In this document: positions 12,868-27,673 of the stretch, piece after piece
Numbering within the stretch: the stretch's first letter is position 1
Layout: each line of letters starts with the position of its first letter
NCBI GenBank assembly: GCA_002726655.1
Contig: PBRP01000034.1
Span: 19,087-83,086 of the forward strand
Length of the DNA: 64,000 nt
Direction: 5' to 3'
Origin: Gammaproteobacteria bacterium
GTDB lineage: Bacteria; Pseudomonadota; Gammaproteobacteria; Pseudomonadales; Azotimanducaceae
The notes under the pieces: generated by a model
The model's input: the letters and a program-made list of their open reading frames with translations, nothing else
Databases searched by the model: none
What the model was told of the DNA's origin: nothing
Position numbers and translations under genes: made by a program

Positions 12868-14403
12868 CTACCAGCGCCCATTCCCAGGGCGCATCATGCC
12901 TGGATCGAGCAGGATTGGGTACGTATCGCGGATCTTGCGATCCGTCTCTGAGTCTATCAGGTCAGGGTAGTGGGTACTGAGTAGCGCCTTTACTCGTTTG
13001 CCTGACTGCTGGCGAATATCAAGTGACCCGGCTGTTTCCCAGTCTTCAGGTGGACTTCGATCAGAAATTGCCGGGTACTCAAACGCCGACCGCATGAGCT
13101 CCAGTGTCTGGGGGTGACGCAGATAGTGACCATCCCCATGCACAACATCTGCTATGACATCAAGGGAAAGGGTTGAATCATCTACCTCAATTCCTCGCAC
13201 CGTGCGTAATATCGCACCAAGCATGTCGTTGTCTATTACCAGGGCTTCGAATGACAATGCCATCAGACCACCAACCATACCGGCAGATTCAGATACATTG
13301 TTACAACCTGCCTGTGAAGCCAGAGCAACGCTTATGCCCTTTTCAAACCCCGCCTGATTATCTGGAATCTTCGCATCGGTCATGCCCGCACCAATAGAAC
13401 TAACGAGGCCATAGTGATTTATCATCTGAGCCGCAGCCGCACTCACCAGTGCTTCCTCGCCACTACCCCCGGTAAAGGCTCCGGTACGCAGGTCTGTCAC
13501 AAAAGGCCAGGCTCCAACAATGACAGGATAGCCAGGTGACACCATGTCAACCAGCAACAGGCCGGCAAGGGCCTCAGCAACACATTGAACCAGAGCACCC
13601 GCAAGTGCCGCAGGTGCCGTTGCTCCAGCCTGTGGAGCGACTACGATCCATACGGGGGCCCCGAACTTAACCGACTCAACGCAGACTTCACTGTTGTCCC
13701 TGGCGTAGCGCAAGGGTGAAACGATCGGGCATCCACCACCATGGCAAAAGGGCCGGTCAAACCAGCGCTTTTCACTGCCAGCAATAGTTTTCAACATCTC
13801 CAGCGTCGGGTCTATGTGAGAGGCATTATTGAACGTCAAGGCAGTGTGTTTGGCCGTACCCGCCACACTGGCATAGGCCGTATTAATGTCACAGGCAAGT
13901 TGATCCTGAATTTCTGTGGCAACAATCAATCGGGAAAATGCGTGTATGTTATCGAGCCTGTCGATCAGCCTTGCCGCATCGTAGATGTCCAGTAGTGTTG
14001 AAGGCCGATAGATTTGTGAATCAGGGTCCAGCATGTTTACCGCTTCGCCGCCACCGTATGTATGCACGCTCTGGCCGCCCAATTTCAAATCATGTTGAGG
14101 CGTACGCCCGAAAAACTGCATTTCCTTGGGCGTATTGGCAATAACGTCTTCAACCAACGCCCGCGGAAAACAAAGCCGGCCATGTTCATTCATCCAGGCT
14201 CCGCGATTTACGGCTTTCTCCTGGAGAATAGGTATGGGATCTCCCATGCCAATGACCTCAAGTACTTCCAGCACCGCCTGGTTAATTCGTTCCAGATCCA
14301 GTTCGCCAAGCGGACGGTAATCGCCACCGCGCATACCGGCTGTAACGACTGCCCCGGATGGCTTTTTTTCCTGACTTCTTTTTCTACCTCGGCGCAAGGT
14401 CAT
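12868..14403 (-). CDS. MttB-superfamily (non-pyrrolysine) quaternary-amine:corrinoid methyltransferase, paralogue 1
   Basis: Uninterrupted ORF with no in-frame TAG, ending in the family-typical ...MRPGNGRW. Shares GGCPIVSPLR, APQAGATAPAALAG and FTGGSGEEAL blocks with paralogue 2. Start chosen at the internal Met (MTLRRGRKRS...); the ORF-track start is 14457. Confidence 0.85.
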   Translation of the reverse strand: MTLRRGRKRSQEKKPSGAVVTAGMRGGDYRPLGELDLERINQAVLEVLEVIGMGDPIPILQEKAVNRGAWMNEHGRLCFPRALVEDVIANTPKEMQFFGRTPQHDLKLGGQSVHTYGGGEAVNMLDPDSQIYRPSTLLDIYDAARLIDRLDNIHAFSRLIVATEIQDQLACDINTAYASVAGTAKHTALTFNNASHIDPTLEMLKTIAGSEKRWFDRPFCHGGGCPIVSPLRYARDNSEVCVESVKFGAPVWIVVAPQAGATAPAALAGALVQCVAEALAGLLLVDMVSPGYPVIVGAWPFVTDLRTGAFTGGSGEEALVSAAAAQMINHYGLVSSIGAGMTDAKIPDNQAGFEKGISVALASQAGCNNVSESAGMVGGLMALSFEALVIDNDMLGAILRTVRGIEVDDSTLSLDVIADVVHGDGHYLRHPQTLELMRSAFEYPAISDRSPPEDWETAGSLDIRQQSGKRVKALLSTHYPDLIDSETDRKIRDTYPILLDPGMMRPGNGRW

Positions 14404-14715
14404 CACCTCATTAGGGTCTAGCCGACTGCTGAAAAGCAGACTGTTAGACCGATACATGAATGTATCGGCCGCAAATCAACGAAGTAAGTTGTTGATTTAT
14501 CGCGAGCGGGCTGAGGCCCGCGACCCTGAAAAAGTGCAGGAAAGCACTATTTTAGCAACCCGTTATAGGTACTGACCATCGTTATAGTACATCTTCCCAC
14601 ACAAGAAGACCTTCATGTAGAATCCCAACCAATCCAGACTCTGCAGCACAAACCAATATGGCAACAGGGATCACTAACAAGGTTGGATATCCAACAAAGG
14701 GCATATCGCTTCACT

Positions 14716-16302
14716 ATGACTGAGTCACACAGCACTCGCCGGGACAGAAAACGCACAAAGCGTTCGGGTGGCCGCTCGGCACGCAGGAAGATCCGCAGCA
14801 ATACAAATGCCGCTAATGCCGTCAGGGCCGGTATGCCGGGAGGACAGTATCGACCTTTAACTGATAATGATATCAAGCGTATCTATGACACCGCACTCAA
14901 GATCCTGGAAGACATAGGCATTGGCGATCCGATTCCCGAAATCCTTCACTATGCCCTGCCCAAGGGCTGCACTCTGGACACCGACAACAGGTTGCGCTTC
15001 CCGCGCAGCCTGGTAGAAGATCTTATCGATGTTTCTGCCAAGGAATACGTGCTCCATTCTCAGGATCCTGTAAATGATCTTACGGTACGCGGCACTGATG
15101 TTCTTTTTGGCTCATCGGGTGAAGCCGTTTCTATACTTGATTATGAATCCCAGCGTTTCAGGCCAACACGCCTGGTCGATCTATACGATGCGAGCCGGCT
15201 GGCCGATCAACTAGAACACATTCACACCTTCGGTCAACCATTTATCGCGGCTGAATACAGTGGAAATGTCTATGTCCATAACATTAACATTGCCTACGCA
15301 CAGCTAGCCGGGACGCGGAAATCTTTCGCGCTTGGCATTGCTGAAGTCGACCATATAGAGACGTTGATCGCACTTTTTGACACTTATCTCGGCGAAGAGG
15401 GTGCTTTCTTAAAACGACCTTTTTGTACCTTTGGCGGATGCCCGATCGTATCACCACTGCGATTCGGTAAAGACAATGCCGAGGTACTGGTCAAGGTTGC
15501 GGAACTGGGTTTACACGTAGATGTGGCGGTCGCTCCCCAGGCAGGAGCGACTTCTCCTGCCGCATTGGCGGGAACCCTGGCGCAGTGCTTTGCTGAAACG
15601 CTTGCCTGTATGTGCGTGGTAAATCTGGTTCGACCCGGTACCGCCATCAATTTTGGTATGTGGCCCTTCATCTCAGATCTGCGTACCGGCGCCTTTACGG
15701 GTGGCAGCGGCGAGGAGGCGCTCGTCATGGCCGCGACAACACAACTCTGTAACCACTTCGGCTTTATTACCAGTGTCGGTGCAGGAATGACCGACTCAAA
15801 AACCATGGACGTTCAGGCTGGATACGAAAAGGCTCTGACCACAGTCACCGCGGCGCTCGCTGGATGCAATCTGATTGCAGCCTACCCTGGTATTGTAGGT
15901 AGCCTGATTGGCCAATCGTTTGAGGGCATGGTGATTGACAATGACATGATAGGTAACATACAGCGTATATTGAGAGGAATAGAGGTAACTGAAGAAACCC
16001 TGTCCTATGACGTGATCAAACAGACAGTTACAGGCGCCGGCCACTTTCTTGGAAGTCAGCAGACCCTTGAACTGATGGAGACAGAATACCTATACCCCAG
16101 CGTCGCTGACAGACTTGCTCCCGCGGCCTGGGAAGAACTGGGAAGTAAAACCCTATATGAAAAGGCTCATGATCGAGTAGGAAACATGCTAAATGACTAC
16201 TACCCACAGTACATCGACCCAAAAGTAGACGCCCGTATTCGTGAGAACTTTCCGATAAAACTAGATCCGATTGATATGAGACGCGGGAATGGGAGATGGT
16301 AA
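14716..16302 (+). CDS. MttB-superfamily (non-pyrrolysine) methyltransferase, paralogue 2
   Basis: Same blocks as paralogue 1 (GGCPIVSPLR, APQAGATSPAALAG, FTGGSGEEAL, ...RRGNGRW). Arg-rich N-terminal leader. Start at the internal Met 14716; the ORF-track start is 14683. Confidence 0.85.
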   Translation: MTESHSTRRDRKRTKRSGGRSARRKIRSNTNAANAVRAGMPGGQYRPLTDNDIKRIYDTALKILEDIGIGDPIPEILHYALPKGCTLDTDNRLRFPRSLVEDLIDVSAKEYVLHSQDPVNDLTVRGTDVLFGSSGEAVSILDYESQRFRPTRLVDLYDASRLADQLEHIHTFGQPFIAAEYSGNVYVHNINIAYAQLAGTRKSFALGIAEVDHIETLIALFDTYLGEEGAFLKRPFCTFGGCPIVSPLRFGKDNAEVLVKVAELGLHVDVAVAPQAGATSPAALAGTLAQCFAETLACMCVVNLVRPGTAINFGMWPFISDLRTGAFTGGSGEEALVMAATTQLCNHFGFITSVGAGMTDSKTMDVQAGYEKALTTVTAALAGCNLIAAYPGIVGSLIGQSFEGMVIDNDMIGNIQRILRGIEVTEETLSYDVIKQTVTGAGHFLGSQQTLELMETEYLYPSVADRLAPAAWEELGSKTLYEKAHDRVGNMLNDYYPQYIDPKVDARIRENFPIKLDPIDMRRGNGRW

Positions 16303-16383
16303 TCCCGGCTTGGATCCGAGCTAAGTTCTTGCTATTTTGAAACATCCTCGCGACTAACGAAGCAGTGGAATAGGAATAGGAAT

Positions 16384-17088
16384 ATGTCACAAGACAATGA
16401 AGAGCAGGACGAAGAGATCATTCTATCGGAGCTCAATGATGAAGAGCTGGTGGAACAGATATTCGACGATCTATACGATGGCCTTGCGGAGGAAATCGCT
16501 GAGGCGACTCAAATACTGCTTGACCGCGGATGGTCAGCCAAAAAGGTACTTGATGACGCGCTTGTCGGCGGCATGAATATCGTGGGTGTGGATTTTCGGG
16601 ACGGGATTCTGTTCGTACCGGAAGTCCTGCTATCGGCAAACGCCATGAAAGCCGGGATGAGCATTCTAAAGCCGATTCTTGCAGCGGCTGGTGCCAAGCC
16701 AGTGGGAAAGATGGTCATCGGTACTGTTAAGGGAGATATCCATGATATCGGCAAAAACCTGGTGGGTATGATGATGGAAGGCGCCGGGTTTGAAGTCATT
16801 GATATTGGTATTAACACGGACGTCGAAACCTACATCGAAACCCTTAACAGGGAGAATCCGGATATTCTAGGTATGTCAGCACTTCTGACCACAACCATGC
16901 CCTATATGAAAGTCGTCATCGACAGAATGCAGGAGCGCAATATTCGCGATAACTATATCGTCATGGTTGGCGGTGCTCCGCTAAACGAGGAGTTCGCCAA
17001 CGCGATGGGGGCTGATGCCTATTGCCGCGATGCAGCCACCGCTGTTGAGATAGCTAAAGATCTGGTGCAGAAACGACGTGCTGGCTGA
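16384..17088 (+). CDS. Corrinoid (cobalamin-binding) methyl-carrier protein
   Basis: 234 aa. Has the B12-binding DxHxxG motif (GDIHDIGKNLV), then SALLTTTMP and GGAPLN as in MtbC/MtgC/MetH cap plus Rossmann domains. The N-terminal roughly 40 aa are unusually acidic. Confidence 0.88.
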   Translation: MSQDNEEQDEEIILSELNDEELVEQIFDDLYDGLAEEIAEATQILLDRGWSAKKVLDDALVGGMNIVGVDFRDGILFVPEVLLSANAMKAGMSILKPILAAAGAKPVGKMVIGTVKGDIHDIGKNLVGMMMEGAGFEVIDIGINTDVETYIETLNRENPDILGMSALLTTTMPYMKVVIDRMQERNIRDNYIVMVGGAPLNEEFANAMGADAYCRDAATAVEIAKDLVQKRRAG

Positions 17089-17109
17089 ACCGGTCTTCAC
17101 AGTTTCCCA

Positions 17110-17721
17110 GTGAACAATTCTTCACCCCGTATATTGCTGATAGGGTGCGGTGCTATCGCCCAGGAACTGCTTGATTTGCAGCGTTGCAACGGCTGGGCAC
17201 ACATCAAATTGCAGTGTCTGCCAGCAGGATTGCACAATACACCGGAGAAAATACCCGACGCGGTTGGCGCGCTGGTTGAAAAGTGGCAAAGCCATTATGA
17301 ACAGATCCTGGTCGCCTACGCCGATTGTGGTACCGGCGGCCTGCTTGATGCCAAACTTGATGAATACGGTATTGAACGCCTGCCAGGAGCCCACTGTTAT
17401 GAGTTTTTTTCAGGCTCGGAAGTGTTCGACGGATTCTTAACTGAGGAAATAGGCACCTACTACCTAACAGATTTTCTCGTGCGCCATTTTGACCGGCTTA
17501 TCAAGGCAGGTCTGGGTCTGGATGTTCACCCTGAATTATTGCCTGTATATTTCAGCAACTACAAGCGGGTAATGTACCTGGCGCAGACACGTTCGCAAAA
17601 TCTATCACTGCTGGCCCGCGAACATGCCGAATATCTTGGACTTGACTACTGTGAGCACTATACGGGTCTCGCACCTTTGGGCAGGGCACTGACAGCAGAG
17701 TCAATTCTTGTGCAAAGCTAG
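17110..17721 (+). CDS. DUF1638 domain protein
   Basis: 203 aa, GTG start. The pattern ILLIGCGAI...CLPAGLHNTPEKI...ADCGTGG...YYLTDFL is what I recall for DUF1638, a family commonly embedded in corrinoid methyltransferase clusters. Confidence 0.6.
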   Translation: MNNSSPRILLIGCGAIAQELLDLQRCNGWAHIKLQCLPAGLHNTPEKIPDAVGALVEKWQSHYEQILVAYADCGTGGLLDAKLDEYGIERLPGAHCYEFFSGSEVFDGFLTEEIGTYYLTDFLVRHFDRLIKAGLGLDVHPELLPVYFSNYKRVMYLAQTRSQNLSLLAREHAEYLGLDYCEHYTGLAPLGRALTAESILVQS

Positions 17722-17780
17722 CGGCCATTTCCAATGAGCGCTGGCGATTTCCACCTTGAAGTACTCAGAAGGAATTCAGG

Positions 17781-18686
17781 ATGACTGACACGGTAATCAG
17801 TTCCGCAAAGAAAGAGGTAGTTATTGGCTTCGAGCAGCCCTTCGTTGTAATTGGAGAGCGAATTAATCCAACAGGACGGAAAATGCTGTCAGAAGAAATG
17901 AAGCTTGGCGACTATTCCCGTGTACAGACTGATGCTATAGCTCAGATCGAGGCGGGCGCTCAAGTACTGGACGTTAATGCCGGCATACCTCTGGCGGATG
18001 AACCGACAATACTGGCAGACTGTATCAAGCTCTTGCAGTCAATTAGCGATGTGCCCCTGTGTATCGATTCATCAATGGTCGAAGCTCTTGAAGCAGGGCT
18101 TGCGGTTTATCAGGGCAAGGCTCTCCTAAATTCGGTTACGGGTGAAGATGAGGTCCTGGAGCGGATATTGCCACTGGTTAAGAAATACGGATGTGCAGTC
18201 GTTGCCATCTGCAATGACGACACCGGCATATCAGAAGATATTGAGGTTCACTTTCAGGTTGCCAGGAAAATCATCGAGCGGGCATCGGACCATGGGATTG
18301 CCAGCAGTGATATTGTAGTCGATCCCCTGGTGATGCCCGTCGGTGCCATAGGTACCGCAGGCAGACAGGCAATGGCACTGGTAGAGCGATTAAGGTCCGA
18401 GTTGGGTGTTAACACCACTTGTGGGGCTTCAAATCTGAGTTTCGGCTTACCCAACCGCTCTGGTCTCAACGCTGCATTCATCAGTATGATAATGGGAAGC
18501 GGTATGACATCGGCTATTACCAACCCGCTAAAACCAGACCTGATGCAGGCAGTTAGAGGTGCTGATGTCGTGATGGGTCATGACTCTGAATGTGCCGCCT
18601 GGATTGAGTCGTATCGAGATCGCTCAGAAGGAGCAGCAGTGAAGCGGGGTAGGCGCGGTGGTCGACGCGCTCGCAGGGCCAAATAA
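17781..18686 (+). CDS. Methyltetrahydrofolate:corrinoid methyltransferase (pterin-binding, MtgA/AcsE/MtrH-like)
   Basis: 301 aa. Has a pterin-binding TIM-barrel pattern (IGERINPTGRK, LDVNAG, CIDSS, LNSVTGE, GASNLSFGLPNR). Arg-rich C-terminal tail. Confidence 0.82.
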   Translation: MTDTVISSAKKEVVIGFEQPFVVIGERINPTGRKMLSEEMKLGDYSRVQTDAIAQIEAGAQVLDVNAGIPLADEPTILADCIKLLQSISDVPLCIDSSMVEALEAGLAVYQGKALLNSVTGEDEVLERILPLVKKYGCAVVAICNDDTGISEDIEVHFQVARKIIERASDHGIASSDIVVDPLVMPVGAIGTAGRQAMALVERLRSELGVNTTCGASNLSFGLPNRSGLNAAFISMIMGSGMTSAITNPLKPDLMQAVRGADVVMGHDSECAAWIESYRDRSEGAAVKRGRRGGRRARRAK

Positions 18687-18719
18687 CCGACATAACTACC
18701 CAGGGGTGAATTGAGAATC

Positions 18720-20720
18720 ATGCCTACCGGCAAGGACCCGAAGATCATTTTTTCACCATCCGGCAAACGCGGACAATTTCCTGCTGGTACAAGCCTGTTG
18801 CAGGCAGCTCGCAAGCTGGGTGTCGACATTGATTCCGTTTGCGGCGGGCGAGGAACCTGTGGCCGTTGTCAGGTAACCGTCTCTGAGGGAGAGTTTTCAA
18901 AACATGGTATCGTTTCGAATACGGCACACCTATCGGATCAGAATGAAGCAGAATCCCGCAGCCGCGATAAACGAAAGCTAAGAGAAGGTCATCGCCTGAG
19001 CTGTCAAACCCAATTGCTCGGCGACATCGCCATTGACGTGCCGAGTACTAGCCAGATCCATCGCCAGCTTGTATGCAAAGACCACGAAGCCCGCGCGATT
19101 AGTATTAATCCCTCGGTACATGCCTTTTTCGTTGAAGTAGCCAGGCCAAGTTTGACAGACCCCACCGGTGACCTCGAACGGCTGATGGCAGCACTTGAGA
19201 AGGATTGGCAGCTTAGCAACCTGGTGTGTGACCTCGCCATAACACGTTCTTTGCCGGAAGTACTCAGGACCGCGAACTGGCAAGTCACAGTCGCAGTAAG
19301 AGGTTCAACTGAGATTGTTGCCGTCTCTGCAGGGTTGAAAGAATCTCTCTATGGTGTCGCTATTGACGTTGGCTCTACTACAATTGCGGCGCACCTCTGC
19401 GACCTGAGCAGTGGAGAAGTACTAGCTAGCGCTGGCCGCATGAATCCACAGATTCGGTATGGAGAGGATCTGATGAGCCGGGTTTCCTACATCATGTTAA
19501 ATTCGGGTGGGGAGGCTGAACTGATCAAGGCTGTGCGGGGGGCGATCTCAGAACTCCTGATCGAAACGACTGCCAAGGCCAGGTTGCGCCCGCTGGATAT
19601 CGTCGAAATAGTTATTGTCGGCAACCCAATCATGCAGCACCTGGTACTTGGCCTAAACCCAATTCATCTCGGTACCGCCCCCTTCACCCTGACAAGCGAC
19701 GCAGCCACCAGTGTCCGGGCACGTGATATTGGTATTGATATCAGCCCGGGAGGATATGCCTATGTTCTACCCTGTATAGCCGGCCATGTCGGTGCTGATG
19801 CGGCAGCGGTGTTACTCGCGGAAGCGCCCTATGATCGTGACGAAATTTCCCTGCTCATTGACGTCGGTACCAACGCTGAAATATTTCTCGGAAACCGTGA
19901 TCGCATACTTGCGGCATCCAGTCCCACAGGGCCAGCATTCGAGGGGGCACAGATCAGCTCTGGCCAAAGAGCGGCGCCCGGCGCGGTGGAAAGAGTTCGT
20001 ATTGACCACGACACGCTTGAACCCAGATTCAAGGTCGTAGGTTGTGACGTCTGGTCTGATGACGCTGCTTTTAACGATCAATTGCCTGTCACGGGTGTCA
20101 GCGGAATATGTGGTTCCGGAATAATTGAGGCAGTAGCGGAATTGTTTCTCGCAGGAGTAGTTAATGCTGAAGGAGTTATTACACCCGAAGCAGCAGCACG
20201 CTCGAAACGTATTGTCAGGCAGGAGCGAACATTCACCTACATCCTGGTTGAGGGTGAACCCGGTGTTCGCATCGAGCAAAACGATATCCGCGCAATCCAA
20301 CTGGCAAAGGCTGCTCTCTATGCAGGGGTTCGTTTGCTTATGGACAAGTTGGGCGTAACACGAGTGCAGCGGATACGACTTGCTGGAGCATTTGGTGCAA
20401 ATATCGATGTTAAGTACGCAATGATACTGGGTATGATTCCAGACTGTGACTTGTCGAATGTTTCTTCTGCCGGCAATGCTGCCGGGACCGGAGCGCGTAT
20501 CGCACTTCTAGATAGGCATGCCAGACAGCTCATAGAACAGCAGGTAAGGGCCATTGAAAAAATTGAAACTGCAGCAGAGGATAGCTTCCAGGATCACTAT
20601 GTTTCGGCCATGGGTATTCCACACCAGTTCGACCCGTTTACCGAGTTGCGCAAGCTTGTCGAAGTACCAATCACTAAACCGGCAACGACCGGTAGACGCC
20701 GAAGAAAACGAACTAGGTAG
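18720..20720 (+). CDS. RamA/ASKHA-type corrinoid reductive activase with N-terminal 2Fe-2S ferredoxin domain
   Basis: Plant-type ferredoxin motif CGGRGTCGRCQV...C near the N-terminus, followed by a large ASKHA (sugar-kinase/actin-like) domain (AIDVGSTTIAAH, LIDVGTNAEI, ICGSGIIEA). Arg-rich C-terminal tail. The ORF-track TTG start is at 18711. Confidence 0.82.
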   Translation: MPTGKDPKIIFSPSGKRGQFPAGTSLLQAARKLGVDIDSVCGGRGTCGRCQVTVSEGEFSKHGIVSNTAHLSDQNEAESRSRDKRKLREGHRLSCQTQLLGDIAIDVPSTSQIHRQLVCKDHEARAISINPSVHAFFVEVARPSLTDPTGDLERLMAALEKDWQLSNLVCDLAITRSLPEVLRTANWQVTVAVRGSTEIVAVSAGLKESLYGVAIDVGSTTIAAHLCDLSSGEVLASAGRMNPQIRYGEDLMSRVSYIMLNSGGEAELIKAVRGAISELLIETTAKARLRPLDIVEIVIVGNPIMQHLVLGLNPIHLGTAPFTLTSDAATSVRARDIGIDISPGGYAYVLPCIAGHVGADAAAVLLAEAPYDRDEISLLIDVGTNAEIFLGNRDRILAASSPTGPAFEGAQISSGQRAAPGAVERVRIDHDTLEPRFKVVGCDVWSDDAAFNDQLPVTGVSGICGSGIIEAVAELFLAGVVNAEGVITPEAAARSKRIVRQERTFTYILVEGEPGVRIEQNDIRAIQLAKAALYAGVRLLMDKLGVTRVQRIRLAGAFGANIDVKYAMILGMIPDCDLSNVSSAGNAAGTGARIALLDRHARQLIEQQVRAIEKIETAAEDSFQDHYVSAMGIPHQFDPFTELRKLVEVPITKPATTGRRRRKRTR

Positions 20721-20755
20721 GGTGCGCTGGATTACTAAATTGCACGGGAATCAAT

Positions 20756-22270
20756 ATGGCCAGAAGAAGTCATCGTAAGAAACGCGATGCTAATGCTATC
20801 CGGCAGCTTCCATTCAACAACGTCACAAATCCATACCCACCAATGGAAGTGCTTAATGATAGTCAGGTTCAGAAGATAGTCACCACTGCTCTGACAGTGC
20901 TGGAGTCTCACGGCATGCGCTTCATGCATGATGAAAGTCGACGCCTGCTGAGACAGGCTGGAGCCAACGTGGATGACTCGCAACAGATGGTGCGAATTGA
21001 TCGTGATCTTGTCTTGGAGAAAATTGCACAGGCCCCATCAGAATTCACACTAAGCGCCCGAAACCCCGATCATGATCTGAAGATCGGCGCGAACAACATC
21101 GTCTTTACATCTGTTGGCGGGCCAGCATTTTGCACCGACCTCGACCAGGGTCGGCGTCCGGGTACCTATGAAAACATGTGCGACTATCTGAAGCTGGTCC
21201 AGAGTTTGAATATCGTTCACCAGGAAGGGGGCGGTGCCTTTGAAGCAATGGACCTGCCACCGGAATCACGACACCTTGACCTCTACCTCGCTCAATCGAC
21301 TCTGCTCGACAAGAATGCGCAAGCCTACGCCCTGGGCCGAACGCGTACCATTGACTGCATCGAGATGACCTGTATTGCCCATGGAATTGATCGGACCGAG
21401 CTAGAAAAAAGGCCATACATACTTGCGATAATCAACACCAACTCCCCGCGACAGCTAGACGTTCCAATGTCAGAGGCTGTTATCGAACTGGCTTTAGCTG
21501 GGCAGGTTAGTTGTATTACACCCTTTACTATGGCCGGGTTTATGAGTCCAGTCACCCTTGCCGGTACCCTGGTACAGCAAACTGCCGAAATTCTGGCTGT
21601 GGCAACCCTCGCACAGGCAGTTAGGCCAGGCGCCCCAGTGATATATGGATCCTTTGCCTCAAATATCGACATGCAAACCGGAGCGCCTGCACTCGGAACG
21701 CCTGAATACACAAAAATGTCTTTCGCAAGCTGCCAGATAGCCCGCTGTCTGGGACTGCCCAGCAGATCCAGCAATACAACGACGTCAAACTGTGCTGATG
21801 CACAATCTGCATATGAAAGTGAGATGTCACTATGGGGATCTGTAATGGGTCACGCAAACCTTGTCAATCATGCGGCCGGCTGGCTGGAGAGCGGCTTAAC
21901 AGCATCGTTTGAAAAATTGATGCTTGATGCTGAGATGCTGCAAATGATGGCAGAGACACTGAAGGCTATAGAAGTCAGCGATGAGGAGTTGGCACTAGAC
22001 GCAATCTCGAACGTTGAGCCCGGAGGTCATCACTTCATGACTGAACACACCCTCGCGCGTTACGAAACTGCCTTTTATCCGAGTATGCTCTCAACCCGTC
22101 AGAATTTTGAAACCTGGAGTGAGCAAGGCCAACAGGATGCAACCATGAGAGCCAACACCATGTGGAAACAACTACTAAATGAATATGAGCGCCCTGCCAT
22201 TGAGCCCGATAAGGAGGAAGCCCTTAAGGACTATGTTGCGAGACGCAAGCGAGAAATTGCAACGCCTTGA
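20756..22270 (+). CDS. MttB-superfamily (non-pyrrolysine) methyltransferase, paralogue 3
   Basis: 504 aa with no in-frame stop. More diverged, but keeps family architecture (..INTNSPRQLD.., ITPFTMAGFMSPVTLAGTLVQQTAE.., GAPALGTPE..). Basic N-terminus MARRSHRKKRD. Confidence 0.78.
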   Translation: MARRSHRKKRDANAIRQLPFNNVTNPYPPMEVLNDSQVQKIVTTALTVLESHGMRFMHDESRRLLRQAGANVDDSQQMVRIDRDLVLEKIAQAPSEFTLSARNPDHDLKIGANNIVFTSVGGPAFCTDLDQGRRPGTYENMCDYLKLVQSLNIVHQEGGGAFEAMDLPPESRHLDLYLAQSTLLDKNAQAYALGRTRTIDCIEMTCIAHGIDRTELEKRPYILAIINTNSPRQLDVPMSEAVIELALAGQVSCITPFTMAGFMSPVTLAGTLVQQTAEILAVATLAQAVRPGAPVIYGSFASNIDMQTGAPALGTPEYTKMSFASCQIARCLGLPSRSSNTTTSNCADAQSAYESEMSLWGSVMGHANLVNHAAGWLESGLTASFEKLMLDAEMLQMMAETLKAIEVSDEELALDAISNVEPGGHHFMTEHTLARYETAFYPSMLSTRQNFETWSEQGQQDATMRANTMWKQLLNEYERPAIEPDKEEALKDYVARRKREIATP

Positions 22271-22291
22271 GAAAGGAGCCGGACTGAACAC

Positions 22292-23818
22292 ATGCGACCA
22301 ACATTAACCACGCTTGACGACCAACTCAAGGACCGGATTCTGACTGAAGCAAAGCGCCTGATGGCCGAAGTGGGAATGGAAATTCGCGGTGAGCCCCTGA
22401 AGCAGAGACTGCTGGATCATGGACTGAAATCAGACGCCGCTGGTACTCGCATTTTCTTCCCACAGGATGTGGTTGAAAAAGCCATTGCTGACGCACCGGG
22501 TTCATTTTCTCTTTTTGATCGGGACGGTGAATTTCACACTGAAATTGGTGGTAACAATGTACACTTCGTTCCCGGCTCGAGTGGGCTCAAGATCCTCGAT
22601 CACAGGAGCGGACAATGCCGCCTGGCCAATTCACATGATTATGTCGAGTATGTACGCCTGTGCGACGGGCTTGAACACATTGCCTACCTGGCAACCGCGT
22701 TTTCTACTAACCAGGACATAGAGTCGCAGGTATCCGATGCCTGGCGCCTCTATATGACACTGACTAACTCGAAGAAACCCATAGTATCGGGTGCTTTCAG
22801 TGAAAATGGTGTGCCTCGGATGGTAGAGATGATGCAGATGTTCCGCCAGAGCCGCGCAGATCTCATCGCTAAACCCATGTCAATTTTCACCATTACCGCG
22901 ACTGGGAACTTCCGTTACGGCGAAGATTCATGCCAGAACCTGCTTGATTGCGTCGAAGCCGGAATCCCTGTGGAAATTGTACCGGTAACCTTGATGGGGC
23001 TTATTGCACCAGTAACCCTGGTGGGAGCCCTGGTGTTTCATTGTGTTGACGTTCTCACCGGCATAACAATGGCGCAAATTGTCAGACCCGGCGCAGCGGT
23101 GCTTTTTGGTGGTGCACCGGCAACCTTTCATATGAAGGCGGCAAGTTCACCCATGGCCGCCATTGAGGCACAACATCTCAATGTGGCTTACGTGGAAATC
23201 GCCAAGTCTCTCAGTTTACCTACCCAGGCCTACATGGCGTTAAGTGATGCTAAGTCTCTTGATGCCCAGGCTGGTGCCGAGACTTTCAGCAGTGCTCTGG
23301 TGGCGGCAATAGCCGGTGTCAATTCGATCTCCGGTCCGGGCATGCTGGATTTTGTCCTGACGTTCAGCCTGCCCAAGCTCATCTTTGACAATGACCTCTG
23401 TGGTCAGGCTTTGCATTTTGTACGTGAAATCAAGGTGCTTGAAGACCTGCCCTCAGATGACCTGGTCAAAGAACTCCTGCAGGAAGATCACCTGCTCACT
23501 TCGCCACATACCTTGAAAAACTGGCCCCAGGAGCTTTATCTTACTGACTCCGTTATCGACCGCTTCAGCCGCGAAAAATGGCTGGAAGAAGGCGCTAGAG
23601 AACTCCATGAACGCGCCGGTGAGGAAGTAGACCGCAGGCTAAGCGCCTATACCCCGATTGCTACCGATGCCCAGATTGATCAAGCCATGAAAGACCTTGT
23701 TACCTCAGGATTCAAGACCCAGACAGACCTGCCTGAACTGCCTCCATTGCCCGCGTCGCCAGGGACAGCGCCAGCGTCAGGTCGTCGAGGTCGAGCCCGA
23801 CGTCGCCGCAAGCGCTAA
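22292..23818 (+). CDS. MttB-superfamily (non-pyrrolysine) methyltransferase, paralogue 4
   Basis: 508 aa. AAGGAG Shine-Dalgarno upstream. Family blocks present ([27 protein letters not shown]). Has a proline-rich linker and then an Arg-rich C-terminal tail. Confidence 0.75.
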
Positions 23819-23965: not shown

Positions 23966-24697
23966 ATGGAATTTACAATTTCTGCGCGCAGTAAACCTGC
24001 AGCACAACCAATACAGCAATTGATCAAGAAAAATTTCAGCCAGATCCCGATTGATCAGATTGAAAGTTTCTTTGGTTTCACCGAACCATGTACTCTCTAC
24101 GGGGGCAGGGTCTTTGGCCAGACCGAACTCAGTCGGTATGACCTGCGCTCAATGTACAAGATGAATATCAACTACAGGATACCCCTGACGAATCATTATG
24201 CGACGGAAGACGAATACAAGGCTTGTCTGCCATTCCTGGAAAAACACTATCGACCCGGCAACTCGGTGATTATCACCAACGACGACCTGGCGACCTGGAT
24301 CAGAGCAGATTTTCCAGACTATCGGGTCGAGGCAAGTGTGATTAAGAACATCAACACCCTGCCCAAGGTTATGCAGGCCTATGAACTTTACGATACGGTC
24401 ATTCTGCCAATGGATGCCAATGAGGATGAGGAGTTTCTTCTGTCCATTCCAGAAAAGGAACGTATCATGCTATTTGCAAACGCGGGATGTGCAATGACCT
24501 GCCCGGCAAAGATCTGCTATACGAGTGTCTCAAAGGCCAATAAGGAAGGTGACAAGAGTTTGTGGCAATGTTCTCAATCCATCAAACCCAGAGATATTCT
24601 GGGTATGATGGATTTTGATCTTGATCATCTCCAAGACCTGGGTTTTCACCGTTTCAAACTCTTGCGATCAAGACCAGGCCAGCTGACTGGCTTCTAA
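23966..24697 (+). CDS. Uncharacterised protein, possible short divergent U32-like (TrhP/UbiV-type) Fe-S protein
   Basis: 243 aa, AGGGAG upstream. By-eye alignment of residues around 105-190 to the TrhP core encoded next door (see findings). Cys pattern C-x3-C-x4-C plus distal Cys residues. Confidence 0.55.
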   Translation: MEFTISARSKPAAQPIQQLIKKNFSQIPIDQIESFFGFTEPCTLYGGRVFGQTELSRYDLRSMYKMNINYRIPLTNHYATEDEYKACLPFLEKHYRPGNSVIITNDDLATWIRADFPDYRVEASVIKNINTLPKVMQAYELYDTVILPMDANEDEEFLLSIPEKERIMLFANAGCAMTCPAKICYTSVSKANKEGDKSLWQCSQSIKPRDILGMMDFDLDHLQDLGFHRFKLLRSRPGQLTGF

Positions 24698-25001: not shown

Positions 25002-26306
25002 CTAATTCTCATCTCGCACCAGCAAGCCATATTCCAGTTGCTCCACTGACAGTTTCACTGGTTTTCTTATCTGAACCAGATGCCCTGAACCGGGTGCTAC
25101 GTCTATTGCATGACCGTCCTTATTTTCCAGGGTTGTAAGCTCAAAATTGAGATTCCCGGATGGTGTCATCAGTTGCAGGGTCTCATCTTTTTCAAATCGA
25201 TTCTTTACATCGATGGTCAGCCAATCTTCGTTCGCATCAATCACCTCGCCCACAAATCGCTGCGGCCCCGTGGGCTGCTTCTGGTTATCGTATCCTTGAT
25301 ACTCGGCCGGTGGGTGGCGGCGATAAAAGCCTTCTGTGTAGCCCCTGTTCGCCAGAGTCTGCAGGTCGTCCATCATCTGCATATCGAAGTCTTTCCCCTG
25401 CACGGCCTCCTCTATGGCTCGACGGTACACCTGTGCGGTTCGCGCTACATAGTAGTGTGATTTGGTTCGGCCCTCGATTTTCAGTGTACGAATACCCATT
25501 TCACAGAACCGTGCAACATGCTGAACCGCGCGTAGATCCTTTGAATTCATAATGTAGGTACCAAATTCATCTTCATAGGCAGGCATGTACTCTCCAGGCC
25601 TTCCCTCTTCCTGAAGCAAGAATGCCGGTTCTTTTTCCCTTTCGACGGCCTTCAGTGGCAGAAGCTCACCCGTTTCGTTTTCAGTTGCCTCGTGAGCCTG
25701 GTACTTCCACCGGCACGAATTCGTGCAGGCTCCCTGGTTTGAATCCCTGTGAGTCATATAGCCCGAAAGCAAACACCGGCCAGAGTATGCAATGCATAGT
25801 GCGCCGTGAACAAACACCTCAAGTTCCATGTCCGGCACTTTCTGACGAATATCCTCAATTTCTTCGAGGGACAGCTCCCGTGACAATATCACCCGGGTTA
25901 GCCCCTGTTGCTGCCAGAACCTCACCGTCGCCCAGTTTACGGCGTTGGACTGGACTGATAGATGAATAGCCATATCAGGAAACTTCTCTCGAACCAGCAT
26001 AATCAGACCGGGATCAGACATGATTAGGGCATCCGGCTGCATCTCAATGACCGGCTCCAGGTCCTTCAGGTAACTCTTAACCTTGTCATTGTGAGGAGAA
26101 ATATTGGAAGCGACATAAAACTGTTTCGCTGCTCGATGGGCTTCATCGATTGCCCCTGCAAGTATTTCAGTTTCCTTGAACTGATTATTTCGCACACGAA
26201 GGCTGTAACGAGGCTGACCAGCGTAAACGGCATCCGAACCATAGGCAAAAGCATAGCGCATATGCTTGACGGTTCCGGCCGGGGACAGCAACTCAGGTTT
26301 TTGCAT
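25002..26306 (-). CDS. trhP: U32-family tRNA uridine(34) hydroxylase (prephenate-dependent), YegQ/TrhP type
   Basis: 434 aa. Near-collinear with E. coli YegQ as I recall it: KPELLSPAGT.K.MRYAFAYG.DAVYAGQPRYSLRVRNN, FVHGALC.AYSGRCLLSGY, YIMNSKDLRA, LKIEGRTKS.YY.ARTAQVYR.AI. Confidence 0.85.
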   Translation of the reverse strand: MQKPELLSPAGTVKHMRYAFAYGSDAVYAGQPRYSLRVRNNQFKETEILAGAIDEAHRAAKQFYVASNISPHNDKVKSYLKDLEPVIEMQPDALIMSDPGLIMLVREKFPDMAIHLSVQSNAVNWATVRFWQQQGLTRVILSRELSLEEIEDIRQKVPDMELEVFVHGALCIAYSGRCLLSGYMTHRDSNQGACTNSCRWKYQAHEATENETGELLPLKAVEREKEPAFLLQEEGRPGEYMPAYEDEFGTYIMNSKDLRAVQHVARFCEMGIRTLKIEGRTKSHYYVARTAQVYRRAIEEAVQGKDFDMQMMDDLQTLANRGYTEGFYRRHPPAEYQGYDNQKQPTGPQRFVGEVIDANEDWLTIDVKNRFEKDETLQLMTPSGNLNFELTTLENKDGHAIDVAPGSGHLVQIRKPVKLSVEQLEYGLLVRDEN

Positions 26307-26495
26307 TTATGGCTCCAGTTGTCCTGGTATGGATCGTGATCCCAAGTGTATCCTTGAATTGTTATCTCTACCAAGAATAAGGAGAATGCTCATGCCAATG
26401 GTCAGCAGAAGTCTTACAGGATACACTCTGCTGCTGGCGATTTTGTCACAACTCGATCTAACCGGCTCTGTCTTACTCGTTGTTGTCCGGTTTTA

Positions 26496-26562
26496 GATAT
26501 CGAGCAGGTTATCCTGGGCGGACCCGTTCTCCATCAGTGATTGTTTTTAAAGGCTAACGGTT
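26496..26562. repeat. Conserved intergenic element, copy A (trhP/selD divergent spacer)
   Basis: gatatcGAGCaGGtTATCCTGGGCGGaCCCgTtCTcCATcAGTGATTg...CTAACGgTT. The core matches copy B at about 34 of 42 positions in my hand alignment. Confidence 0.6.
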
Positions 26563-26618
26563 TACGTGTTTGGCAAATCTGGTTCAGAATATGCAATTTT
26601 CGGACAGAAACTAACTAG

Positions 26619-27668
26619 ATGTCATTATTCAAGAAACATACGCTTACAAGCCTCTCTAAAACCTGCGGCTGAGCGTCGAAAATCAGTTCGGTCGAACTGT
26701 CCAGGTTACTCAAGACTCTGCCAGCCACGGAGGATGCCAACCTGCTCGTGGGATTTGAAAATTCTGACGACGCGGGAGTTTACAGGATCAGTGATGAGCA
26801 GGCACTGGTCACCACAGCAGATTTCATTACACCACCGGTCGATGATCCCTATATTTACGGCCAGATTGCCGCCGCCAACTCATTAAGTGATATATACGCC
26901 ATGGGCGGAAGGCCTGTTACCTGCCTGAATCTTGTGTGCTTCCCAACTGGCAAGCTCGATGAGTCTATTCTTCATAGAGTTATCCAGGGAGCAATTTCCA
27001 AGATAACGGAGGCCGGTGCCGTACTTGCCGGAGGACACAGCACTGAGGATTCAGAGCCAAAATTCGGGCTCTCGGTCACAGGCCTGGTTCACCCAGAAAA
27101 ATACTGGGCTAATAAGGGTGCCCGACCGGGGGATCTACTGCTCCTAACTAAACCGATAGGCAGCGGACTGTTGTTTAACGCCAACCTCAAGGGTGCCGTG
27201 TCGGCAACCGCCATGGAAGCCTGTATCAATCATCTGGTTCAACTTAACAAGACCGCAGCCGAGATTTTCTCCCAATACGAGATAAGTGCTGCAACGGACA
27301 TTACGGGTTTTGGCCTGGCAGGTCACAGCTACGAAATGGCCCGCGCATCCAAAGTGACAATCAACATCGATCACACAAAGGTCCCTGTTTTCGATGAAGC
27401 CGAGGCCATGTTTCGGCGCGGGTTCACGACCGGGAGCAGTGCCAGCAATTTGGACATGATCAAGGAAACCTGCGACCTCAGCAAACTGGAAGCAAGCAGG
27501 CGTGAGCTTATGGTTGATCCTCAAACCAGTGGTGGTCTGTTGGTCTCGGTGCCAGAAGATGAGGCAAATAACATCATCCAGAAACTCCTTGATGCCGGTC
27601 TTGAAGAGGCTGCTATTATTGGTGAGGTGTTGGCTCATGATGGCCAGTACTTCCTCAACTTTCCCTGA
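26619..27668 (+). CDS. selD: Selenide, water dikinase (selenophosphate synthetase), selenocysteine-containing (TGA at 26670-26672 read as Sec)
   Basis: The ORF track only shows 26748..27668. Extending the same frame upstream gives MSLFKKHTLTSLSKTCG-TGA-ASKISSVELSRLLKTLPATEDANLLVGFENSDDAGVY. This aligns with the SelD N-terminal glycine-rich loop (E. coli ...GAGCGCKI...), with TGA at the Cys17 position. Downstream are the AIR-synthase-like motifs (TTADFITPPVDDPY, DIYAMGG, LAGGHS, TDITGFGL). Confidence 0.85.
26670..26699 (+). promoter_or_regulatory. Candidate bacterial SECIS element (UGA plus hairpin)
   Basis: UGA is followed after 11 nt by a perfect 6-bp stem CAGUUC/GAACUG (26684-26689 pairs with 26694-26699). 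The apical loop is GGUC (26690-26693), the same loop sequence I recall for the E. coli fdhF SECIS, at a similar distance from the UGA. Confidence 0.7.
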
Positions 27669-27673
27669 TCCTT

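Follow-up and report, generated by a model that had tools for sequence, protein, structure and literature searches.

How a single corrinoid carrier can serve several methyltransferases in an apparently oxygen-respiring gammaproteobacterium is the question raised by a gene island at positions 12868-23818 of the window, the 64,000-nucleotide stretch of a 126-kb contig analyzed here. The earlier note had regarded such systems as known from anaerobes. This view is outdated, since an MtgBCD system with RamA and a DUF1638 protein is functional in the aerobic Ruegeria pomeroyi (Mausz et al., 2025; PMC12478193); MtgBCD has also been found in marine Gammaproteobacteria, with its genes often in operons (PMC12478193). 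The island very probably represents a horizontally acquired, cobalamin-dependent methyl-transfer system of the MtgBCD type, built around one hub carrier. All parts by which the aerobic version is recognized (a PF06253 methyltransferase MT1, MtgC, MtgD, a RamA-like activase and DUF1638) lie in one operon here.

Composition of the island

All eight ORFs called earlier are present and intact (Table 1). Seven of them form a same-strand operon with gaps of 21-81 nt, and the eighth, MttB1, is transcribed divergently, as had been described. Domain searches likewise agreed with the earlier reading that neither a regulator nor a BCCT/ABC transporter is encoded within the island. The control region between MttB1 and the operon contains an 8-bp inverted repeat, AAATCAAC-n10-GTTGATTT, and a GC hairpin, while promoter-like matches in it were no commoner than in shuffles and a riboswitch search of the same region found none. 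The gene order recurs on independent metagenome contigs and the flanks, on a contig that also carries the dnaA/gyrB/atp region, show synteny with those of congeners; an assembly artefact is therefore unlikely.

Table 1. Features of the methyl-transfer island and its surroundings (window coordinates)
Feature	Position	Strand	Remarks
Lineage-specific segment	12809..28745	.	island + orf243, trhP, selD, 305-aa gene; tblastn synteny
MttB1, non-Pyl MttB-family MT1	12868..14457	(-)	529 aa; PF06253 E 6e-98; divergent from operon
Divergent intergenic control region, MttB1/seven-gene operon	14458..14682	.	sequence read
MttB2, non-Pyl MttB-family MT1	14683..16302	(+)	539 aa; PF06253 E 1e-96; operon gene 1
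Corrinoid (cobalamin) carrier, MtgC-like, acidic N-terminal head	16384..17088	(+)	B12-binding_2 + B12-binding
DUF1638 protein	17110..17721	(+)	PF07796 E 2e-26
MT2, methyl-corrinoid:tetrahydrofolate methyltransferase, MtgD/MtgA-like	17781..18686	(+)	Pterin_bind
RACo/AcsV-type activase	18711..20720	(+)	Fer2 + RACo_linker + Raco_middle + RACo_C_ter
MttB3, MtgB-side MT1	20756..22270	(+)	PF06253 E 9e-182, 605 bits
MttB4, C-terminal poly-Arg tail	22292..23818	(+)	PF06253 E 6e-74

The four island MttB proteins scored 249-605 bits with the MTTB profile PF06253 (cut-off 25), the alignments running from profile positions ~1-29 to 490-499 of 500. They have no internal TAG or TGA, and the claim of four full-length, non-pyrrolysine enzymes thus stood. 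Moreover, they stayed below the pyrrolysine-type equivalog TIGR02369 (280-348 bits, cut-off 525), and the Pyl-equivalent codon is ATG in MttB1 and MttB2, TTA in MttB4 and deleted in MttB3. The Rfam element PYLIS_3 matches the coding DNA of MttB1/2, MttB4 and MttB5/7 in register with the Pyl codon; in the tree these proteins lie on the side of the pyrrolysine MttB of Methanosarcina barkeri (7XCL), from which the proteins here differ in lacking the TAG and in scoring below that cut-off. The true start of MttB1 is probably a downstream ATG (MTLRRGRKR...) and that of MttB2 probably the ATG at 14716. The N-terminal stretch of MttB1 is basic and the N-terminus of MttB2 is Arg/Lys-rich, whereas MtgB of Desulfitobacterium hafniense has no basic N-terminal extension, only about five residues preceding its conserved core by the inferred native numbering.

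The count of four MttB paralogues is right for the island and too low for the genome, which encodes seven, three of them elsewhere. In a tree whose references included MtgB, 4YYC and 7XCL, the paralogues formed four deep clades with 20-27% identity between them. As had been noted, MttB1 and MttB2 are close (48% identity) and MttB3 and MttB4 diverged (no pairing above 27%, their own included). MttB2 shares 75% identity with the orphan paralogue MttB6 (contig C71), and orthologues of MttB1 with 64-68% identity were found in three related loci (L018, L035 and L062). Of 24 related loci that include sufficient sequence upstream of the carrier gene, 5 have a gene of the MttB1/2 type there.

That the carrier, the MT2 and the activase each occur once was confirmed by tblastn for the whole genome, which is 91% complete; DUF1638 is also a single copy by tblastn. 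The carrier contains DxHxxG at residues 118-123 and the SxL...GG motif, and its score with the NCBIfam models for MtgC of anaerobes stays under the cut-off (208 bits against 370). The MT2 is above that of NF005719 (351 bits against 259) and, by family search, is the only stand-alone pterin methyltransferase of the genome, the others being FolP and MetH.

RamA bears C-terminal 4Fe-4S clusters. The activase had been taken for a RamA-type protein; instead it is of the RACo/AcsV type, with an N-terminal plant-type 2Fe-2S domain (Fer2) in which Cys44/50/53/98 are present. All four of its Pfam domains, the same as in RACo of Carboxydothermus and AcsV (Fer2, RACo linker, RACo middle and ASKHA C-terminal), exceed their cut-offs, which places it in the RACo family (COG3894). 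Its score was 108.6 bits with the RamA model TIGR04270 (cut-off 500) and 416 bits with the AcsV exception model, also below the cut-off (800). Gene callers place its start at 18720, giving a product of 666 aa. One RACo was found in the genome by family search, against seven PF06253 genes. The DUF1638 gene keeps its position in most related loci, and the protein is presumed by analogy to be a helper of reductive reactivation, a role predicted for this family (PMC12478193).

A conserved poly-Arg tail occurs on every catalytic partner and an acidic head on the carrier. The basic tail was present in 31 of 33 MttB4, 53 of 54 MT2 (counted as at least 6 K/R among the last 20 residues), 68 of 72 RACo and 40 of 48 MttB3-type orthologues; RACo of Carboxydothermus and AcsV differ from the activase here in this conserved tail. 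All seven MttB paralogues of the host carry a basic tail. The acidic head, defined as at least 10 D/E within the 35 residues that precede the cap domain, was found in 41 of 43 carrier orthologues. From these charges we infer that the tails of all partners probably dock on the N-terminal head of the carrier, and tails and head may constitute an electrostatic docking code by which one carrier serves up to seven MT1 proteins, the MT2 and the activase.

Substrate pockets of the MttB paralogues

The substrate motif of MtgB consists of Y97, R312, H348 and F356, called the likely minimum set for glycine betaine, and the Arg equivalent to R312, which binds the acid group, is kept in all characterized members acting on acidic quaternary amines (PMC13080624). 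None of the four island proteins has the full motif. The residues at the four positions are G, R, H and G in MttB3 (two of four matched), G, S, E and L in MttB1, G, S, A and L in MttB2, and S, Q, S and V in MttB4. The R312-equivalent Arg is confined to MttB3 among the seven paralogues, being absent from MttB1, 2, 4, 5, 6 and 7, so that the earlier suggestion of the known betaines as substrates was not borne out.

In the tree, MttB3 clusters with MtgB and 4YYC; it is 35% identical to the former over its full length (D. hafniense, 2QNE/9YCE) and 39% to the latter. Its R337 and H372 align with R312 and H348 of MtgB, and all 34 orthologues share both. Within the island it is the best candidate for a methyltransferase of acidic, glycine-betaine-like quaternary amines, its substrate most likely being such an amine, with glycine betaine the leading candidate. 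This particular compound is not assured, because Gly occupies both aromatic positions of the MtgB site and one residue is deleted at the Pyl/Leu position.

Judged by their pockets, MttB1, MttB2, MttB4 and the three orphan paralogues probably act on other, non-acidic substrates. MttB4 shares no more than 27% identity with any other paralogue or PDB member, and its signature at the MtgB pocket positions, S/Q/L/S/V, was kept in 33 of 33 orthologues; the corresponding signature of MttB1 is G/S/M/E/L. Among 30 related operons with enough downstream DNA, MttB4 was present in 29 and MttB3 in 26. Its relatives in metagenomes amount to more than 3500 clusters at 90% identity, all generically named. By sequence comparison, MttB4 is a member of a highly conserved MttB clade without a studied member. 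Its substrate may be a non-acidic methylamine such as choline, or else a secondary or tertiary amine on which it would act independently of pyrrolysine. The combined proposition, that the MttB4 clade serves a compound class used by no characterized MttB and that tails and head form a docking code, is one we consider seriously without favoring it.

Deep divergence, together with pocket residues that are invariant within clades and unlike between them, argues for different substrates and supports the earlier suggestion to this effect. The opposite reading, that the four paralogues are isofunctional, e.g., all glycine betaine methyltransferases for different conditions, is improbable. The closeness of MttB1, MttB2 and MttB6 makes overlap plausible within that clade, and glycine betaine induces two PF06253 proteins in Ruegeria (PMC12478193). 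Yet the low identity between clades, the unlike pocket residues and the restriction of the Arg312 equivalent to MttB3 speak against it, and in Phaeobacter, which carries mtgB1-4, only mtgB1 of the four is highly expressed on glycine betaine (preprint, bioRxiv 10.64898/2025.12.19.695462).

Acquisition by the host lineage and genomic context

The island belongs to a lineage-specific segment of 15.9 kb between ubiA and a gene for a 169-aa protein. According to tblastn synteny with five genomes of the same genus, the congeners have a slot of 2-7 kb at this place, ~2 kb in four of them and 7 kb in the fifth; the slot of congener L105, the sole one whose ORFs were scanned, holds DUF47 and PHO4. PF06253 was absent from five of six congeners, and no island was present at the slot in the five whose ubiA lies on an assembled contig, which argues for an accessory gain; none of the six gave a match to trhP. 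A search for a tRNA or a long flanking repeat at the segment found neither. The core of carrier, DUF1638, MT2, RACo, MttB3 and MttB4 is conserved with 60-83% identity in ~40 Woeseiaceae-like MAGs, where the closest operons occur. The island is, on this comparative evidence, a horizontal acquisition of the host lineage. The MTHFR encoded in the operon of most related loci is absent from the island and has no homologue in the genome.

The host encodes four COX1-family matches (heme-copper oxidase homologues), and its description as apparently aerobic therefore holds. It also encodes FolD, two DAO + GCV_T proteins of ~810 aa of the dimethylglycine/sarcosine dehydrogenase type and one BCCT transporter. 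A dedicated MetF2 for methyl-THF oxidation was not found in the island, and the genome has a single metF (one PF02219 match). CbiC was not found in the 91%-complete genome, and the host is thus probably dependent on cobalamin uptake; its apparent inability to synthesize the corrin ring would tie the metabolism of the island to B12 exchange.

Proposed functioning, alternatives and significance

In the proposed scheme, each MT1 would bind its own methylated nitrogen compound in the TIM-barrel pocket and pass one of the methyl groups to cobalamin, in its Co(I) state, on the single carrier, after which the pterin-binding MT2 would transfer it from methyl-Co(III) to tetrahydrofolate. Co(II) formed by oxidation, presumably frequent in an O2-respiring cell, would be re-reduced with ATP by the RACo-type activase, with participation of its 2Fe-2S domain and probably of DUF1638. 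The resulting methyl-THF could be oxidized via the host MetF and FolD for energy or be used by MetH. We infer these chemical steps from the gene content and the intact motifs.

Co(I) is oxygen-sensitive, and the system might be active only under O2 limitation or anoxia, as an anaerobic-type pathway of a facultative organism. The closest operons are Woeseiaceae-like, several of them adjoining MtrC/MtrF-type multiheme cytochromes, and the acquired segment also holds trhP. This reading is nonetheless unlikely: identical genes occur on contigs of Tara and other marine metagenomes, the host has its four oxidase homologues, a dedicated ATP-dependent activase is to be expected if the cofactor is often oxidized, and both Ruegeria and Phaeobacter grow aerobically on glycine betaine by means of the homologous system (PMC12478193; bioRxiv 10.64898/2025.12.19.695462).

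As improbable as the isofunctional paralogues is the view that the carrier and MT2 act mainly in methionine synthesis, as the MtgC and MtgD parts of a split synthase completed by a separate homocysteine-binding MtgE, an arrangement found in Phaeobacter and Ruegeria, demethylation being secondary. The genome does contain two stand-alone PF02574 ORFs, on contigs C145 (303-aa frame) and C4 (343-aa frame), but both matches are weak (69 and 145 bits), far below the NCBIfam cut-offs, and unlinked to the island. A full-length MetH is kept on contig C97 (1238-aa frame; S-methyl_trans, Pterin_bind and B12-binding), which makes a role of the island in methionine synthesis unlikely, whereas MetH is missing from most MtgBCD genomes (Mausz et al., 2025; PMC12478193). 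The congener distribution, moreover, is that of an accessory gain. A decaying or silent acquisition is hardly credible: the operon MTHFR of relatives, a linked transporter and a regulator are all missing, and the MttB gene of congener G002 is disrupted by internal stops, but the eight ORFs are intact with their cofactor motifs, an identical MttB4 protein occurs on at least 24 independent metagenome contigs, and the orthologues retain their identity and invariant pocket residues over ~40 species.

The methyl-transfer system read here resembles MtgBCD of Ruegeria pomeroyi DSS-3 and Phaeobacter inhibens in its parts, the O2-respiring host, the paralogues sharing one carrier and the transfer of methyl to THF, a likeness by parts list. 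In those two aerobes the parts are backed by genetics and proteomics (PMC12478193; bioRxiv 10.64898/2025.12.19.695462). In Ruegeria the genes are scattered, whereas here they form one acquired operon; unlike both, the island host keeps the full MetH and has no MetF2, and its most constant MT1, MttB4, is without the acid-binding Arg/His pair. Distant versions in Halioglobus and Acidimicrobiales have a 4YYC-like MT1 (Y/R/L/H/G) alongside, a type to which MttB3 does not belong. The three-component logic of MT1, carrier and MT2 is that of MtgB/MtgC/MtgA of D. hafniense (2QNE, 9YCE; PMC13080624), which is an anaerobe and whose MtgB residues Y97 and F356 are not found in MttB3. A precedent for one corrinoid protein serving MttB paralogues of differing substrates is given by MtpB, MtcB, MtyB and MthB of Eubacterium limosum, an anaerobic acetogen; the characterized members keep the R312 equivalent, which only one of the seven paralogues here retains. 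In aerobic marine bacteria, a single MtgC can be accompanied by as many as seven PF06253 ORFs (PMC12478193).

Overall, the island is a gene-rich new example of a system already shown in oxygen-respiring marine bacteria. Methylated nitrogen osmolytes rank among the major forms in which carbon, nitrogen and energy are exchanged in the sea. Cobalamin-dependent demethylation, long thought to be anaerobic, was recognized in 2025 as a main route in oxic waters (PMC12478193). Here a pelagic gammaproteobacterium appears to have gained the whole kit in one step, pairing one carrier with seven substrate enzymes of four deep clades. The most constant substrate enzyme of the Woeseiaceae-type operon is of an uncharacterized type without the acid-binding arginine, and the identity of the MttB4 substrate would lengthen the list of compounds with vitamin B12-dependent turnover.

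Gene content of the island and the MT1 complement of the genome

All island genes listed in the earlier note are present at their coordinates according to the ORF map and the Pfam and NCBIfam scans (see the table below). Intergenic gaps of 21-81 nt separate the seven plus-strand genes, which form one operon; MttB1 is transcribed divergently from it on the minus strand, as had been described. The assignment of the four MttB-family (PF06253) MT1 enzymes to the non-pyrrolysine type also held, with internal TAG and TGA absent from 4/4 ORFs and all TIGR02369 scores below the equivalog level. Both parts of the cobalamin signature (DxHxxG and SxL...GG) were found in the carrier, an MtgC-like protein, and the activase possesses the cysteine set of a plant-type 2Fe-2S. 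The latter is RACo/AcsV-like instead of RamA-type as previously proposed, scoring 109 bits with the RamA model against a cut-off of 500. The Rfam model PYLIS_3 matched MttB1, MttB2 and MttB4 at 39.5-45.4 bits (gathering score 38), each match starting exactly at the homologue of the Pyl UAG codon (here ATG, ATG and TTA, respectively). A recoding signal was rejected, all three matches being explained by coding-sequence homology; the model is thus able to fire on non-Pyl mttB genes.

Features of the island and its surroundings (positions in the window)
Feature	Position	Strand	Evidence or remark
MttB1	12868-14457	-	ORF map, Pfam/NCBIfam scans
PYLIS_3 match in MttB1	13284-13383	-	Rfam
Inverted repeat and hairpin in the MttB1/MttB2 divergent spacer	14473-14521		repeat perfect, 8 bp
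MttB2	14683-16302	+	ORF map, Pfam/NCBIfam scans
PYLIS_3 match in MttB2	15787-15883	+	Rfam
Cobalamin carrier	16384-17088	+	cap and Rossmann B12 domains; acidic N-terminal head
DUF1638	17110-17721	+	ORF map, Pfam/NCBIfam scans
Pterin-binding methyltransferase (MT2)	17781-18686	+	NF005719, 351 bits against a cut-off of 259
Poly-Arg tail of MT2	18627-18686
Activase (RACo)	18711-20720	+	Fer2, RACo_linker, Raco_middle, RACo_C_ter
Poly-Arg tail of RACo	20661-20720
MttB3	20756-22270	+	ORF map, Pfam/NCBIfam scans
MttB4	22292-23818	+	ORF map, Pfam/NCBIfam scans
PYLIS_3 match in MttB4	23240-23339	+	Rfam
Poly-Arg tail of MttB4	23759-23818
Poly-Arg N-termini of MttB1-3
orf243	23966-24697		243 aa
trhP, selD, 305-aa gene	25002-28591

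The divergent spacer between MttB1 and MttB2 contains the inverted repeat AAATCAAC-n10-GTTGATTT, followed by a GCGGGC-TGAG-GCCCGC hairpin; the repeat might serve as operator for a regulator whose gene lies elsewhere. No cobalamin riboswitch or other RNA control was detected in window 10-30 kb at E <= 0.1, and promoter and terminator scans gave matches no better than in shuffles.

The window belongs to a 3.92 Mb MAG (161 contigs, 91% complete), in which it lies on a contig of 126 kb. This genome has seven PF06253 ORFs: the four of the island, two on contig C71 and one on C80. The three outside the island (MttB5-7) have no adjoining carrier gene and are neighboured by MFS transporters and flavin amine oxidases, with a TetR regulator on C80, which hints that their substrates are maybe methylated amines, demethylated and then oxidised. 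The gene order at C80 14266-19595 is MttB7-flavin amine oxidase-MFS transporter-TetR regulator; at C71 19822-27233, MttB5 adjoins an MFS transporter gene, and MttB6 is flanked by an SDR on one side and a flavin amine oxidase on the other. One congener, G002, shares the C71 pair.

A single carrier of the island type and a single DUF1638 were found in the genome by tblastn. RACo and the stand-alone pterin methyltransferase are likewise present once, the two other Pterin_bind matches being FolP and MetH. The single set of carrier, MT2 and activase claimed in the earlier note was therefore borne out, but the genome has seven MT1 enzymes and not four, which makes the hub picture stronger than originally stated: seven PF06253 proteins face one set of partners, so they would use one common carrier. 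A second carrier was rejected, as the twelve other B12-binding matches are MetH, mutase-type, radical-SAM-type or frames of ~135 aa; one match cut off at the edge of contig C4 lies outside this classified set. None of these matches resembled the carrier beyond the B12 domain (tblastn). Four stand-alone B12-binding ORFs of 132-140 aa are located on contigs C73, C2, C109 and C39, and further B12-binding frames include MetH, mutase-type proteins of 729 and 1087 aa, and several of ~500 aa.

Divergence and substrate pockets of the paralogues

Pairwise identity was highest between MttB2 and MttB6 (75%), followed by MttB5-MttB7 (52%) and MttB1-MttB2 (48%); MttB3 shares 39% with 4YYC and 35% with the Desulfitobacterium-type enzyme, D. 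hafniense MtgB, while all other pairs are at 19-29%. Comparison by phylogeny and active-site residues, as proposed in the earlier note, gave four deep clades with differing pockets in a tree whose reference members were those in the PDB only (2QNE/9YCE, 4YYC, 7XCL). MttB3 is placed on the side of MtgB and 4YYC, and MttB1/2/6, MttB4 and MttB5/7 on that of the pyrrolysine enzyme 7XCL, the deep order being provisional in this quick maximum-likelihood search of 105 sequences with long branches.

Glycine betaine is bound in MtgB by Y97 and F356 (cation-pi) and by R312 and H348 (carboxylate), according to mutagenesis and a ligand-bound structure; R312 recurs in every characterised member, and these all act on acidic quaternary amines (Picking et al. 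2026, PMC13080624). At positions 97/312/Pyl-equivalent/348/356 (MtgB numbering), MttB3 has G/R/deletion/H/G in 34/34 orthologues, MttB4 has S/Q/L/S/V in 33/33, MttB1 has G/S/M/E/L in 3/3, and MttB2 and MttB6 have G/S or C/M/A/L (five orthologues of MttB2, one of MttB6); the 4YYC-like pocket is Y/R/L/H/G (14-15/17 per position). Such residues, invariant within a clade and different between clades, argue against redundant paralogues. By these residues, MttB3 alone is a candidate for the use of an acidic quaternary amine. Compared with D. hafniense MtgB, however, even MttB3 has only part of the glycine betaine motif, and therefore glycine betaine would be a leading but tentative guess for its substrate rather than a finding. 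The MttB4 orthologues form >3500 90%-identity clusters in metagenomes, with generic names throughout, and no distant clade member above 28% identity was found in other contexts in an even sample of 400 gammaproteobacterial genomes (three candidates scored per genome). Abundant as it is, the clade covers a narrow phylogenetic range.

Charged tails and the predicted methyl transfer in an aerobic host

A basic C-terminal tail, defined as at least six K/R in the last 20 residues, was present across the fetched loci in MttB4 (31/33 orthologues), MT2 (53/54) and RACo (68/72). Moreover, 40 of the 48 MttB3-type proteins had at least seven K/R in the 35 residues ahead of the core, and 41/43 carriers had at least ten D/E in the N-terminal head. 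These features are conserved across Gammaproteobacteria and Acidimicrobiales loci; DUF1638 and the carrier C-terminus had no such bias in the fetched loci. In the genome, a basic tail occurs in 7/7 paralogues, the three orphan MT1s included. In contrast, D. hafniense MtgB has ~5 residues ahead of the conserved core and so no such basic extension. We know of no description of poly-Arg tails and an acidic carrier head in the publications consulted. The pattern fits a putative electrostatic docking of all partners, orphan MT1s included, on the same carrier.

By analogy with homologous systems, from which all of the proposed chemistry is derived, each MT1 would transfer a methyl group from its own substrate to the Co(I) carrier, MT2 would pass it from methyl-Co(III) to THF, and RACo with DUF1638 would re-reduce Co(II) to Co(I) at the expense of ATP. 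Methyl-THF might then be oxidised via host MetF and FolD or consumed by MetH. The genome contains one MetF, and a FolD adjoining a serine/threonine dehydratase and a GcvT-like gene, thus offering a route from methyl-THF to methylene-THF and onward; MetH is complete and accompanied by two weak stand-alone homocysteine methyltransferase-like ORFs. Two DAO + GCV_T proteins (~810 aa, dimethylglycine/sarcosine dehydrogenase type) provide a host route from dimethylglycine to glycine. Five further GCV_T matches and one BCCT transporter were also found. The reading of the host as aerobic is supported by four heme-copper oxidase homologues. CbiC was not found in the genome, an absence not proven at 91% completeness; cobalamin is therefore probably imported, and the genome seems heavily cobalamin-dependent yet without apparent ability to make the corrin ring. 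Host sequences (MttB4 region, AtpD, GyrB) are found in marine metagenomes from Tara, JGI and ENA.

Acquisition of the island, its relatives and precedent

The island is an acquisition of this lineage. A PF06253 gene is absent in 5/6 other species of the genus, and G002 has a broken MttB-family gene on its contig C9 (29747-31233; three pieces, one TGA and one TAG inside), which suggests that an earlier copy has decayed there. In five congeners with ubiA on an assembled contig, the counterparts of the genes at window 28746 onward come 2-7 kb after recG-SDF-ubiA; the slot scanned for ORFs in one of them (locus L105) contained DUF47 and PHO4. This synteny makes window 12.8-28.7 kb lineage-specific, and besides the island the segment contains orf243, trhP, selD and a 305-aa gene with weak similarity to an acyl-CoA dehydrogenase middle domain. 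A binning artefact was ruled out by the syntenic flanks and by the identical MttB4-orf243-trhP arrangement on independent metagenome contigs. Found in 0/6 congeners, trhP nevertheless follows MttB4 in L018, a Guaymas Basin MAG locus, so that it may have travelled together with the island. Orf243 was rejected as an island part (homologues in 0/80 related loci, no Pfam/NCBIfam match); its place between MttB4 and trhP is retained on the independent contigs of the same species. Neither tRNA, integrase nor flanking repeat was found at the island edges, where the search for long direct or inverted repeats returned only the MttB1/MttB2 paralogy.

The island proteins were mapped onto 80 loci obtained by an activase scan of species-representative genomes. 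The core carrier-DUF1638-MT2-RACo-MttB3-MttB4 is present at 60-83% amino-acid identity in ~40 MAGs, mostly labelled Woeseiaceae, Woeseia or unclassified marine Gammaproteobacteria. The more distant versions of Arenicellales, Halioglobus, Acidimicrobiales and SAR324 consist of carrier-MT2-RACo with or without a 4YYC-like MT1, some with MTHFR within the operon, and never include MttB4. Among 30 Woeseiaceae-type loci with enough downstream DNA, MttB3 and MttB4 are adjacent in 26 (gaps -6 to 34 nt), MttB4 is alone in three, MttB3 alone in none, and one has neither. An upstream MttB1/2-type gene is present in only 5/24 loci of this type with enough upstream DNA, and all four MT1 genes only in L018. 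Most Woeseiaceae-type operons (L016, L017, L026, L032 and ~36 other loci) have a divergent ~284-aa MTHFR-like gene (PF02219, 47 bits) between RACo and MttB3, which is absent from the window, locus L015 and the rest of the genome. PF06253 was found in 24/400 genomes of an even gammaproteobacterial sample, which indicates a patchy yet recurrent occurrence of the family within the class.

What the earlier note had singled out, anaerobe-type machinery in an aerobic host with a single carrier serving many MT1s, is already published. In the aerobic Ruegeria pomeroyi, MtgC and MtgD are required for growth on glycine betaine and double as a split methionine synthase, and induction was seen for DUF1638, a RamA-like protein and PF06253 proteins (Mausz et al. 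2025, PMC12478193). The same study reports mtgC, frequently as part of an operon, from marine Alpha-, Gamma- and Deltaproteobacteria. Of the four mtgB paralogues in Phaeobacter inhibens, mtgB1 encodes the enzyme for glycine betaine (preprint, December 2025). Overall, the earlier interpretation was borne out in part: the island belongs to the known MtgBCD systems of aerobic bacteria and stands out by its number of paralogues, its single-step acquisition and the unstudied MttB4 clade.
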